Source of the DNA: Octopus sinensis
Lineage: Eukaryota
Length of the DNA: 64,000 nucleotides
Assembly (NCBI RefSeq): GCF_006345805.1
Contig: NC_043001.1
Coordinates: 16,740,001 to 16,804,000, forward strand
Direction: 5' to 3'
Notes under the pieces: generated by a model
What the model was told of the DNA's origin: nothing
What the model saw: only the letters and a program-made list of their open reading frames with translations
The model's database searches: none
Shown: positions 2,854 to 62,700 of the stretch, one piece after another
Numbering within the stretch: the first letter of the stretch is position 1
Layout: every line of letters begins with the position of its first letter
Translations under genes and position numbers: made by a program

Positions 2854-3530
2854 AGAAAATAGTAAAAAGTGAAAAAACTATAGAAGGCTTGTTTTAAAAG
2901 GTTAAAAAATATATATTTGAGTCATTATGTCTGAAGAATGTTATAAATTTTTTTCATACAATGACATAGTTTAGAAGAAATGATCGGTTTCGCGTTCAGC
3001 TTTTCAAATTTCTTACATCGTTATGTTTACGTTGAGAAGAGTTATCGTTATGTTTATGTTGAGAATTTTTAATCTTTCCATTTTACCAATGTGCTATCGG
3101 AACACCGACACAAATTAGACTAAACAAGGAAACATTCTTCATTGAAAAATACAAGCCCAAACTTAACCATTCCAACATACTTTTACAGAGAAATTCACTC
3201 CAAAAGAAAGGCAAAAAATTTTAAGCGATTATCTCCCTTACACCAGAAGAAATCACTTATTACCTCCCCTTATCCGGAACTCTACTCAACATAAACATAA
3301 CGATAACTCTTCTCAACGTAAACATAACGATGTAAGAAATCTGAAAAGCAGAACGCGAAACCGGTCATTTCTTCTAAATTATGTCATTGTAAAATTTATA
3401 ACATTCTTTAGACATATTGACTCAAATATATATTTTTTAACCTTTTAAAACAAGCCTTCTGTAGTTTTTTCACTTTTTACTATTTTCTATATATTCAACC
3501 ACGTGCTTTCACAATCCAACTTTCTCATCT
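2854..3530 (+). mobile_element. 5'-truncated Penelope-like element with inverted pseudo-LTR
   Basis: 3066-3176 encodes FLIFPFYQCAIGTPTQIRLNKETFFIEKYKPKLN, matching the C-terminus of the GIY-YIG ORF at 29547; 2854-3063 is an inverted copy of 3285-3489; HHR present. Confidence 0.85.
3334..3373 (+). ncRNA. Minimal type-I hammerhead ribozyme motif
   Basis: aagaaat-CTGAAAA-gc agaac gc-GAAA-ccgg-TC-atttctt; the inverted copy at 2975-3014 has core TTGAAAA. Confidence 0.7.
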
Positions 3531-3578
3531 ATATATATATATATATATATATATATATATTATATATATATATATATG

Positions 3579-3810
3579 ATAATTATCGCCAAGCTAATAT
3601 GGTAGTCTATAAATATAAGACTAAAGCTGCCGCTGATTAGCTCCAAGAGGCCATCGCCTCTAGCTTGCTATATGGCCTCTTGGAGCTAATCAGCGGCAGC
3701 TTTAGTCTTATATTTATAGACTACCATATTAGCTTGTTGATAACTATTAATATCCAGTAACGCTGCCGTAATCTCCTTTAGAGAGACTTAGAAATTTTAA
3801 TATTTCTATT
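3579..3810. mobile_element. PLE-type fold-back element (family shared with 10261 and 14441)
   Basis: Arms ~3580-3656/3672-3748, tail ending TAGAAATTTTAATATTTCTA, (TA)n on both sides. Confidence 0.7.
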
Positions 3811-4534
3811 ATATATATGCACATATATATTCTCACACAAAAAAATGGTTCAATACAAAAACAGCATACGCACCAATAAAACACAAATAATACACTACTC
3901 ACCGATTCATAAAAAAACACATGAAGACCCAAACAATACACAATCAACACATACATACGTACACGTATAAAGACCCAAACAATATGCAATCATCACACAT
4001 ACTCACACACACACAAACACAAACAAACAAACAATTTACTCAAACAATGCGCAGAAAACATACACACCTAGATTCGCACACGAATATATATGGATACAAA
4101 CAGAAACAAACATCTTGAACAAATGTCTTCTACAATGGAGTCTTACATAAAGATACTTTGCGAGTGTTGACCAATGTTTGTGAAAGAAGTCAGTCATGAA
4201 ACGGTTTTATTTTTTCTCTGGAATGGAGTCGAAAAACACACAGATAGATTCACACGCCAGCAATTCATGTAAACACGAGCACAAAGGCAACATTAATTCA
4301 TATTGAAACAAAATATAGACACCCAGACAATATAATAACAACAGCCTCGCGTATACACGATCACAAAAGAATAGGCCTCCACACAGACATAAGAAGATAT
4401 GCACACACGCACTAACATAAACAATACGCATACACAGATTCACATACCTCGGTTTCGAAGCGATTCTGATCGCGAATAAATCGTGCTTTACACACACACA
4501 CACACACACACACAACACACGCACATACACACAT

Positions 4535-5182
4535 TCTTTTCTACGCTAGGCATAAGGTCCGAAATTTTTGGGGAAGAAGCCAGTCGATTAGCTCGACCCC
4601 AGTACGTAACTGGTACTTAATTTATCGACGCCGAAAGGAAGAAAGGCAAAGTCGACCTCAGCGGAATTTGAACTCAAAACGTAGATAGAGGAAATATCGC
4701 AAAGCATTCAGCCCGGCGTGCTAATGTTTCTTATTTCTTTATTGCCCACAAGGGGCTAAACACAGAGGGCACGAACAAGGACAGACAAAGGGATTAAGTC
4801 GATTACATCGGCCCCAGTGCGTAACTGGTACTTAATTTATCGACCCCGAAAGGATGAAAGGCAAAGTCGACCTCGGTGGAATTTTAACTCAGAACTTAAC
4901 GGCAGACGAAATATCGCAAAGCATTCCGCCCGGCGTGCTAACGTTTCTTTTTTTTTTTATTGCCCACAAGAGGCTAAACATAGAGGGGACGAACAAGGAC
5001 AGGCAAAGGGATTAAGTCGATTATATCGACCCCAGTGCGTAACTGGTATTCAATTCATCGACCCCGAAAGGATGAAAGGCACAGTCGACCTCGGCGGAGT
5101 TTGAACTCAGAACGTAAAGATAGACGAAATACCGCAAAGCATTGCGCCTGGCGTGCTAACGTTTCTGCCAGCTCGTCGCCTT
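4535..5182 (-). mobile_element. SINE family A with ~3 tandem internal units
   Basis: Core ATCGACCCCGAAAGGATGAAAGGC repeated at ~4625, 4840 and 5058. Confidence 0.85.
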
Positions 5183-5189
5183 TATATTG

Positions 5190-60798: not shown

Positions 60799-61122
60799 GT
60801 AAAGGAGCACTCCGTCGGTTGCGATACGATCAGCTGATACGATCAACGGAACAGTTTGCTCGTGAAATTAACGTGCAAGTGGCTGAGAACTCCACAAACA
60901 CAGGTACCCTGAACGTAGTTTTCGGGGAGATTCAGCGTGACACTGTGTGTGACAAGGCTGGCCCTTTGAAATACAGGTACAACTCATTTTTGCCAACTGA
61001 ATGGACTGGAGCATCGTGAAATAAAGTGTCTTGCTCAAGGACACAACGCGCCGCCGGGAATTGAACTCACGACCTTACGATCATGAGCCGAATGGCCCTA
61101 ACCACTAAGCCACGTGCCTTCA
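60799..61122 (-). mobile_element. SINE family D with 12-bp TSD
   Basis: TSD CAATGGCTTGAT at 60787-60798 and 61123-61134. Confidence 0.9.
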
Positions 61123-61713
61123 CAATGGCTTGATTTATGTAATATATATATATATATATATTCTATGAAACCTCCCAGGATAAACTTAACCTTTCATCAT
61201 TCGAGATCGATAAAATAAAGTACCAGTGAAGTACTAAGGTCAATATAATCAACCATGTTCTTTCCTCAACTATTGTGATCATATGAAAGATCAATAAGTA
61301 AACGTCCTTTGGACAGACTTCGAATACCGTTACTGATTACCTGAATGAAACGCATGAAAAACCTGCAAAGATCAGAACATACCCCAACTCCGATTCTCCT
61401 TAGTGGTACTCAGATCTCTGACCTTCAAATTTCACGTTTTCTTTCCAATCAAAGTTGCATGCTGTTTTCAAGATTAGAAAATATGTACCTGCTGATCCTA
61501 TAAAACGTAGATAATAGCGTTCAAGTCTAGAATTTCTCGCATACAGGTCAATAACAGAGCATCTAATTAATAGATAGAGGTAATAGCGACAAGCAAATAT
61601 CCATCATATCACACCCGAGAACCTGGAAAGAAGGAGTATATTAGTATCCTTTCAGGAGGGACTTTTGATCTGGGCCTTCAGTTTAAGAAATTTAAGAAAA
61701 CGTTTAAAAAAAA

Positions 61714-62051
61714 AGAGTGGTCGTATAATGTCAACATAACGTGACAGTCTCGTAAAGGGAATTACACCACCGCTATATAGCCCTAGGAAGCATCGACGGG
61801 CAAGACCCAGAAACATGCATGTCTTCAGGCTGCTAGTCCCAGCTGGCGGGGGTGCTTGCTTCCCCTTTGCAAATATAAGGACACAGGAAATGTGTCAAAG
61901 CCGACAGGAAGCATCGATGTTTCCTAGGGCTATATAGCGGTGGTGTAATTCCCTTTACGGGACTGTCACGTTAGGTTGACATTATACAATCACTCTATCG
62001 CTCCACCACCGCTCATGTCTCTTTGAGACATTTAGAAATTCAATATTTCTA
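61714..62051 (+). mobile_element. PLE-type fold-back element with partial HHR
   Basis: Arms 61714-61796/61914-61996; ggg caaga ccc a-GAAA-catgcatg-TC; tail TAGAAATTCAATATTTCTA. Confidence 0.65.
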
Positions 62052-62651
62052 AATAGTTTTTAAAAAAATATATGAGAATAAAATCAATAACTCTTAATTT
62101 GCGTAAATAAAATGTATCATGCGAGAATTTGACTGTCGAAATTCCATCGATTTTCTGGAGCATTTTTAGGGATTTGTTCTGTGTGAAACTTCATCCGATC
62201 ATGTCGAGCCAAAACTCCACACAAACCTTACTCACCATTTTGCTGGAATCTAAAGATTGGTCACCTATTTAACGAATTGAATAACAATAAAGGAGAGATA
62301 TTGTACCAGCGCATGTATTATTGGTGTAATAATCCTCCCAAGACACAACACGATTTGTTTCAATACACGAATTCACATCAAAGATCTTGTAAACTAAATA
62401 CAAAAATGGACTAAAAATTTTGTCAAGCTGGCTTTTGAAATTTTCAAAGCCTATCCTTTCTCTGCACCTCCGAACTTGTTTTTCCTTCTTTCTAGATTGA
62501 TATCGATAAGTACAACTTTTCTAACGTCCAGAGAGAAAAGGATTTGATCAATAACAAACTTGCTATTCAGAAGCATCTTATCCCGGCAAACCCGAACTGC
62601 TGTATTTCGTCTTAGGAGAGCAACTTCTTCAAATTCATTGACGCAGTGAGC

Positions 62652-62700
62652 CTTTGAGACATTCCGGTGTTTCGATTTAGTTGCGTCTCTTCAGTCCAAG
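62652..62700 (-). ncRNA. Hammerhead-like motif (decayed)
   Basis: cttgga-CTGAAGA-ga cgcaactaaa tc-GAAA-caccggaatg-TC-tcaaag. Confidence 0.55.

Follow-up and report, generated by a model that had tools for sequence, protein, structure and literature searches.

Do the palindromic stems of minimal hammerhead ribozymes form a code by which the RNAs of one repeat family recognise only each other? The question is raised by a 64-kb stretch of the Octopus sinensis genome (contig NC_043001.1; the whole stretch is called the window hereafter), where an original prediction had placed more than 15 such ribozymes and proposed that their largely family-specific stem III palindromes may restrict dimer cleavage to same-family RNAs. 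The hammerhead motifs of the window are real. A family-specific stem III code was not supported, as the same words are reused across unrelated clusters, with sharing above uniform chance. The account that we consider probable is that the hammerheads lie in repeat remnants (four Penelope-like 3' ends, one retrozyme-like lineage, the rest likely of the same kind), and that the palindrome pattern stems from descent and drift.

The genome is 2.72 Gb in size and rich in microsatellites, which also dominated the output of a repeat finder in the window. For comparison, 1.16 Mb outside the window was sampled (160 kb of neighbouring sequence and twenty 50-kb blocks), giving 1.22 Mb with the window included. 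To avoid circularity, these 1.22 Mb were searched with a palindrome-blind scan that did not require stem III to be self-complementary. It returned 39 hammerhead-like sites against one in the reversed control, and 28 of the 39 carried a short self-complementary stem III. A palindrome-anchored scan at a score of at least 10 gave eight matches in the window, whereas the reversed window gave none and 30 block shuffles averaged 0.1. Patterns for individual families had between 17 and 16,171 matches in the genome and none in controls. At a looser score of at least 8, 85 real matches stood against 14 in the control, and the Rfam hammerhead families had no match in the window at gathering score.

Seed searches of the window identified about 22 sites in 13 families. 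The final structural descriptor, which was shaped on window sites, was passed by 11 of them, ten with a full core (N3-U-G-A-N-N8-A, GAAA, NUH) and one with U at core position 6 (U6); the remaining sites, about 11, are decayed or partial. Short descriptors also miss several families with AT-rich stem II regions of 55-77 nt (window 8161-8266; loci L036, L085, L104, L113 and L129). Motif density was higher in the window (11 in 64 kb) than in the sample (54 in 1,160 kb; Poisson P=0.0003), a comparison to be read with the caveats that matches are clumped (another 50-kb block also holds 11), that three of the window matches belong to one family, and that the descriptor was derived from the window. 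The motifs are common across the genome, and a rough extrapolation from 54 per 1.16 Mb gives about 10^5 per genome. The window sites and associated protein remnants are as follows.

2975..3014, minus strand: hammerhead motif with a U3-A8 core, stem III decayed to ACCGAU; inverted, 5'-truncated partner of the copy at 3334.
3063..3221, plus strand: C-terminal remnant of a GIY-YIG endonuclease of Penelope-like type, lying upstream of the 3334 motif.
3334..3373, plus strand: hammerhead motif with ACCGGU and a C3-A8 mismatch in this copy; the family has U3-A8 and 413 matches.
5688..5734, minus strand: hammerhead motif with a U3-A8 core, ACCGGU and a 7-bp stem I; family distinct from that of 3334.
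7446..7494, minus strand: hammerhead motif with a 14-nt palindrome; the family has 14-mer (21/34) and 12-mer (12/34) forms.
8161..8266, minus strand: hammerhead motif with an intact core, a 73-nt stem II region and ACGUACGU.
8945..9005, minus strand: hammerhead motif with AUUGGACCAAU (the 8943 family, 553 matches).
9445..9482, minus strand: ACGU-family copy with AUGU and a canonical A6, which is rare in the family (183 of 16,171).
10451..10492, plus strand: hammerhead motif with a U3-A8 core and ACGCGU, of a tandem retrozyme-like lineage of about 360 nt with 2,374 matches.
14720..14760, plus strand: decayed member of the 10451 lineage, from its ACAUGU sister subfamily.
19036..19086, plus strand: 3' half of a ACAAUUGU-family motif, mirrored on the minus strand at 19761-19811.
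19301..19345, minus strand: hammerhead motif with AGUACU, mirror of 19508.
19508..19552, plus strand: hammerhead motif with AGUACU; family of 582 matches, AGUACU in 94 of the 100 listed.
29353..29393, minus strand: hammerhead motif with an A3-U8 core, ACCAUGGU, a 7-bp stem I and a very short stem II, about 150 nt past the endonuclease stop.
29547..30654, minus strand: broken Penelope-like reverse transcriptase C-terminus and GIY-YIG endonuclease (Pfam PF01541, E 2.3e-05).
31053..31097, minus strand: hammerhead motif with AGUACU, inside a 5'-truncated Penelope-like 3' end of about 650 nt.
31375..31540, minus strand: endonuclease C-terminus remnant of the AGUACU element.
34826..34863, minus strand: ACGU-family motif with U at core position 6.
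38850..38885, minus strand: decayed ACGU-family motif with U6.
41033..41052, plus strand: coreless 3' half of an ACGU-family motif.
41524..41570, minus strand: inverted 3' fragment of the ACCUAGGU family.
41865..41936, plus strand: hammerhead motif with an intact core, stem III decayed from ACCUAGGU.
61782..61829, plus strand: motif with a decayed core and ACAUGCAUGU; intact relatives at L027 and L032.
62652..62700, minus strand: motif with an intact core, an imperfect stem III and a weak stem I; a single distant relative.

Each stem III word that had been read from the window was found at its coordinate, and the inferred ACCUAGGU at 41865 proved to be the commonest form in its family (5 of 17 copies). 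Two sites keep the word but not an intact core: 41033 is a 3' half that lacks the core, and the core at 61810 is decayed. The AGUACU motifs at 19301 and 19508 are present but are mirror halves of one palindrome of about 940 bp, not independent insertions. Five sites (14720, 38850, 19036, 19761 and 41524) were absent from the earlier list. Two candidates were left out, an inverted pair at 415/642 that has no consistent core and a site at 32836 that has no relatives.

The association with Penelope-like elements rests on protein remnants. Four of the 13 window families lie just downstream of such remnants. In the 3334 family a remnant stands upstream both in the window (3063-3221) and at L047, and in the AGUACU family an endonuclease remnant is found at 31375-31540 and at L005, L011, L012 and L014. 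Similarly, the ACCAUGGU family follows the reverse transcriptase/GIY-YIG remnant at 29547-30654, with a protein remnant also at L143, and the ACGU motif at L196 sits about 700 nt downstream of a broken thumb and endonuclease. The Pfam GIY-YIG score was above cut-off for the window frame and for one of five further frames, below it for two, and absent for the other two. Among the window's long open frames no intact gene stood out, the broken Penelope-like frame at 29547-30654 being the exception. The reading of the motifs as type-I hammerheads with palindromic stem III was borne out, and at least four of the families sit at Penelope-like 3' ends.

The copies are 5'-truncated, end beside microsatellites and frequently form inverted (opposite-strand) pairs, and in translation their endonucleases carry a CxxxxCxxC linker ahead of the GIY-YIG domain. 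An inverted layout of truncated copies has been described for Penelope-like elements, and the linker has been tied to Neptune elements (PMC8557442; here and below, statements on published work refer to the parts of each source that were covered). The Neptune clade is alike in its CX2-5CxxC linker and in insertion beside (TA)n or (CA)n microsatellites, which offers a lead, and a lead only, towards membership of that clade.

The core itself bears signs of selection on a ribozyme fold. Positions 3 and 8 covary, and all four Watson-Crick pairs occur in this one genome. Most families have C3-G8. U3-A8, a published variant (PMC4209133; PMC3088659), is found in the 3334 family (100 of the 100 listed among 413) and in the 5688 and 10451 families, A3-U8 in the 29353 family (30 of 33 copies), which is almost without stem II, and G3-C8 in an AAUAUU family with seven copies in the sample (e.g. 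L023:4478, L034:1370 and L075:8889). Non-pairing combinations at 3 and 8 showed at most a weak excess over the control. Such covariation would be hard to explain other than by selection on an active ribozyme fold.

One family departs from this pattern. The most abundant family of the window (34826, 38850, 41033 and 9445) has at least 16,171 genome matches, and 98 of the 100 listed carry U at core position 6, with A there in only 183 matches. Its position 7 varies freely, and its stems, GAAA and ACGU are retained. Because A6 occurs in so few family matches, the canonical A6 core at 9445 is probably a back mutation, and the AUGU of the same copy is best read as CpG decay of ACGU (ATGT 8 and ACAT 8 among the 100 listed). 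The family appears either to have spread without working catalysis or to use a variant core. A natural A6C hammerhead variant has been reported to have low activity (PMC3088659).

Is stem III a family code? Clusters were defined on the flanks with stem III removed; a score filter dropped 10 of 43 clusters, all singletons, of which L047 and L175 were restored by hand for a comparison of 39 representatives because genome searches showed that they belong to families. Across the 733 between-cluster pairs of these representatives, 23 had an identical word, although sharing is over-counted in this set in that ACCGGU and ACGU loci had been fetched deliberately. The words common to more than one flank-defined cluster are ACCGGU (six clusters), ACGU, ACGUACGU, ACAUGU and ACAAUUGU. 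Genome patterns combining core and word agree: that for ACCGGU gave 479 matches against 62 in controls, and the 100 places listed include several stem II types unrelated to one another, and that for ACGU gave 21,673 against 1,470, a count that takes in longer words beginning ACGU.

An unbiased sample, limited to the window and loci L015-L130 with L047 restored, was used for chance tests. It held 26 perfect words in 22 clusters, with five words shared, making 7 shared pairs. Uniform draws would give 2.35 (P(>=)=0.012), and draws that keep the first two letters would give 6.0 (P(>=)=0.36); 22 of the 26 words start A-C. Diversifying selection for a code would lead to sharing below chance, and here sharing is at or above it. 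The sample is small, and the clusters may have deep common ancestry.

Young families are uniform in their words. Tallies were counted by eye from the first 100 listed places of each genome pattern search, which was preferred for within-family variation to a BLAST-type genome search that scores only the best 40 candidates. AGUACU was found in 94 of the 100 listed (of 582), ACCGGU in 93 of 100 (of 413) and ACCAUGGU in 27 of 33. Other families are mixed: the 7446 family carries its 14-mers and 12-mers on the same flanks, and the 8943 family has 62 11-mers and 38 12-mers among the 100 listed of 553. In a tally of 13 clusters, covering all member types and including some changes that are decay in dead copies, the palindrome had changed with stem I kept in five and stem I had changed with the palindrome kept in six. 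Variation of the palindrome within a family, which had been named at the outset as grounds for refuting the code, was partly observed: several families carry two or more palindromes side by side, though these stay self-complementary.

Partner choice was then considered for the dimer as a whole. Lunse, Weinberg and Breaker reportedly described short-stem-III Penelope-like hammerhead variants that cleave as dimers. A review likewise states that Penelope-like hammerheads with a short palindromic stem III cleave as dimers (PMC6765202). For window stem III words of up to 11 nt, which covers 10 of the 11 intact motifs, the monomer hairpin is predicted to be unfavourable (+1.8 to +6.0 kcal/mol) or impossible; at 7446, with its 14-nt stem III, the monomer can form a closed hairpin (-2.8 kcal/mol, nearest-neighbour). 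The two-copy duplex is predicted to be favourable for all window words but AUGU. A need of the short palindromes for a dimer is predicted from these hairpin and duplex energies, which fit the published dimer model. From the geometry, each junction of a double hammerhead would take its cleavage site and the 3' strand of stem I from the other RNA. As the 5' strand of stem I would pair with the other RNA's 3' strand, stem I should carry as much partner choice as stem III.

By nearest-neighbour sums, the median predicted heterodimer penalty is 11 kcal/mol for stem III and 15 kcal/mol for stem I. Wherever two clusters have the same word (23 pairs), a stem I penalty of 5.3 to 20.4 kcal/mol sets them apart, and no between-cluster pair out of the 733 comes within 3 kcal/mol of the homodimers overall. 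The families are therefore predicted not to cross-pair. This needs no selection, because 23 same-word pairs and 8 stem-I-compatible pairs give an expectation of 0.25 doubly compatible pairs per 733. Stems I and III are thus predicted to keep families apart jointly, with selection unneeded.

The lineage at 10451 offers the closest view of a palindrome changing. Its members are spaced by about 360 nt in arrays of up to six same-strand units with one type-I hammerhead per unit, and the window's copy stands outside a full array. The motif had been counted as a minimal hammerhead; its ACGCGU stands, but it is retrozyme-like rather than minimal, given its canonical-looking stem II, its longer stem I and the tandem repeats. 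No Penelope protein match was found near the lineage in any of six loci. Contigs aligned over 10270-10715 show no ends of molecules and are thus uninformative on cleavage. One contig has a 363-nt head-to-tail joint, compatible with a circle or an array alike, and none of the sequencing-run records holding hammerhead-bearing sequence was listed as RNA. Among the 100 listed of 2,374 matches, ACGCGU occurs in 60, ACAUGU in 28 and single-step intermediates in four. In a tree of 45 copies from which stem III was excluded, and in which four long branches leave the change counts unsure, ACGCGU needs three changes, one forced by well-supported branches. The reading that ACAUGU arose merely by CpG decay from ACGCGU in copies already dead was rejected, as ACAUGU far outnumbers the intermediates and is linked to subfamily sites. 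The lineage resembles non-LTR (long terminal repeat) retrozymes, which are tandem units of 150-450 bp with a type-I hammerhead and no coding frame (PMC7229834; bioRxiv 10.64898/2026.07.22.740005), and differs in its U3-A8 core and in having two palindromes in sister subfamilies; it is known here from DNA.

Other tandem arrangements were observed. In the L167 array of the 10451 lineage, three of four copies carry the non-palindromic ACAUCU. Units of about 558 nt with ACGUACGU (L110:1451-2009, L126:406-3192) and of about 360 nt with ACCGGU (L177, L178) are, from their layout, further retrozyme-like families. Four tandem ACCGGU hammerhead cores stand at a spacing of about 59 nt at C3:35767344-35767562.

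These observations suggest the following course under descent and drift. A master element with two pseudo-LTRs, or a tandem array, would place neighbouring identical copies on one transcript. The neighbouring copies would pair in cis through their palindromes as a double hammerhead, which would cut out a unit-length RNA, and a lone copy with a stem III of 4-8 nt would stay inert. Most window copies, being solo, truncated or decayed, are likely inactive. Stem III would be constrained only to begin A-C and to remain self-complementary. Its changes appear reachable while self-complementarity is kept, either by drift through G-U intermediates (ACGCGU, ACGUGU, ACAUGU) or where self-complementary bases are added or removed at the centre (AGUACU/AGUAUACU, the 12- and 14-mers). 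The palindrome of a family would then come from descent, with families converging on few words that start A-C.

Several points weigh against this account. Protein linkage was seen for only 4 of the 13 window families, and Penelope protein was not found near the 7446 family (0 of 6 loci) or the 41865 family (0 of 4 loci). The Penelope origin of the remaining families is suggested by the shared motif, since no protein remnant stands near the 7446, 10451 and 41865 families. Any two of the 39 hand-picked representatives (741 pairs) have a predicted heterodimer penalty of at least 5.3 kcal/mol, as a code would likewise predict. In five of eight within-cluster pairs, picked for differing palindromes, stem I is the same and the whole predicted penalty (5.5-8.8 kcal/mol) comes from stem III. 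ACAUGU recurs on the 45-copy tree with six changes, four of them forced, and few single-step intermediates (4 of 100). Furthermore, a Poseidon-clade hammerhead was cleaved only with its protein present (PMC11167929); given this case, RNA pairing may be incomplete as an account, and protein assistance in cleavage is possible.

The recurrent switch between ACGCGU and ACAUGU is what would be expected if stem III were a selected recognition code, with sister subfamilies that share stem I pushed to change palindrome and so to avoid heterodimers, or processing by relatives or non-autonomous parasites. The predicted heterodimer penalty of such sister types and the lack of any between-cluster pair close to homodimer energy also fit it. 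A code is nevertheless unlikely: words are shared at or above chance, only 0.25 compatible pairs are expected without any selection, stem I turns over as frequently as stem III, stems I and III have remained compatible between ACGCGU subfamilies that are well separated (5 of 21 type pairs), two palindrome lengths coexist on identical flanks, arrays already offer an identical partner in cis, and one of them, L167, consists largely of non-palindromic copies. The same holds for its two-stem form, in which stems I and III together make an RNA self/non-self code: unrelated families would reuse a palindrome and differ in stem I, and sisters would be selected to switch palindrome. We doubt this form, including its proposed sister switches (ACGCGU/ACAUGU, ACCGGU/ACUCGAGU and AGUACU/AGUAUACU). 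If true, it would keep dozens of co-resident retroelements and retrozyme parasites from cutting or hijacking each other's RNA.

The U6 family raises another alternative, that the motifs serve mainly as RNA structures bound by protein, or are relics, with the fold chaperoned or recognised by the element's own protein and catalysis dispensable in some lineages. The amplification of one family to at least 16,171 matches with U at position 6, its stems, GAAA and ACGU being kept, fits this reading, as do ribozyme mutants that left in vitro insertion unaffected where cleavage needed the protein (PMC11167929) and the spread of Naiad elements, which lack canonical hammerheads (PMC8557442). In most other families, however, the core is complete, and their 3-8 covariation runs through four Watson-Crick pairs, which makes the reading quite improbable in general; it can apply to the U6 family alone and be compatible with descent and drift elsewhere. 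Chance matches in AT-rich, microsatellite-rich DNA are highly improbable. The motif is short, Rfam is silent, the loose scan has a background and single sites such as 62694 and 32836 are doubtful, but the excess over the reversed control, the genome matches of family patterns that never occur in controls and the compensatory changes in core and stems refute chance for the 12 families that have intact relatives at other places in the genome.

Some further repeats of the window were observed. Two adjacent near-perfect palindromes of about 1 kb occupy 17941-18949 (99.4%) and 18954-19893 (98.3%), the second of which mirrors the AGUACU and ACAAUUGU fragments; a fold-back event or an error of assembly could account for the pair. 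An inverted repeat pair at 268-800, also present at L104 and L113, contains GAAA and a nearby ACCGGU, with an unconvincing hammerhead core. A 218-nt repeat, which we take to be SINE-like (short interspersed element), stands in tandem at 4582-5166 and has dispersed copies at 1732, 33799 and 52418.

Earlier work has already described sequences of this kind, their many families within one genome, their palindromes and the idea of dimers. The minimal hammerheads of Penelope-like pseudo-LTRs (Cervera and De la Pena 2014, PMC4209133) have the same type-I layout with palindromic stem III and the U3-A8 variant, and frequently an extra base between positions 9 and 10.1, also seen here. They likewise number in the thousands per genome, mostly as solo copies, and fall into many divergent families, with opposite-strand pairs 100-700 bp apart and a location at the 3' end of reverse transcriptase-GIY-YIG elements. 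The present case differs in genome and in a wider range of palindrome lengths (4-16 nt), and the A3-U8 and G3-C8 cores and the family-fixed U6 go unmentioned in the part of that paper covered, supplements aside. Repeat-type dimeric hammerheads (Perreault et al. 2011, PMC3088659) also carry palindromic stem III across many ribozymes, read there as enabling dimers; natural U3-A8 and the low-activity A6C are reported in that work, and A6U and a test of a family code are not reported in the part covered. In the literature at hand, which did not include the key dimer-cleavage paper or supplements, no heterodimer or family-code tests and no natural A6U hammerheads were found.

As it stands, the window illustrates published biology richly but in no unusual way. 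Its value lies in a natural panel that comprises stems I and III in dozens of combinations, sisters distinguished by the palindrome alone, four 3-8 core pairs and an amplified U6 family. This panel makes testable in vitro both the trans action of Penelope-like hammerheads and the need for catalysis in the spread of the elements. If the code were true, it would amount to RNA-level self-recognition among transposons and would provide a ready set of orthogonal split ribozymes.

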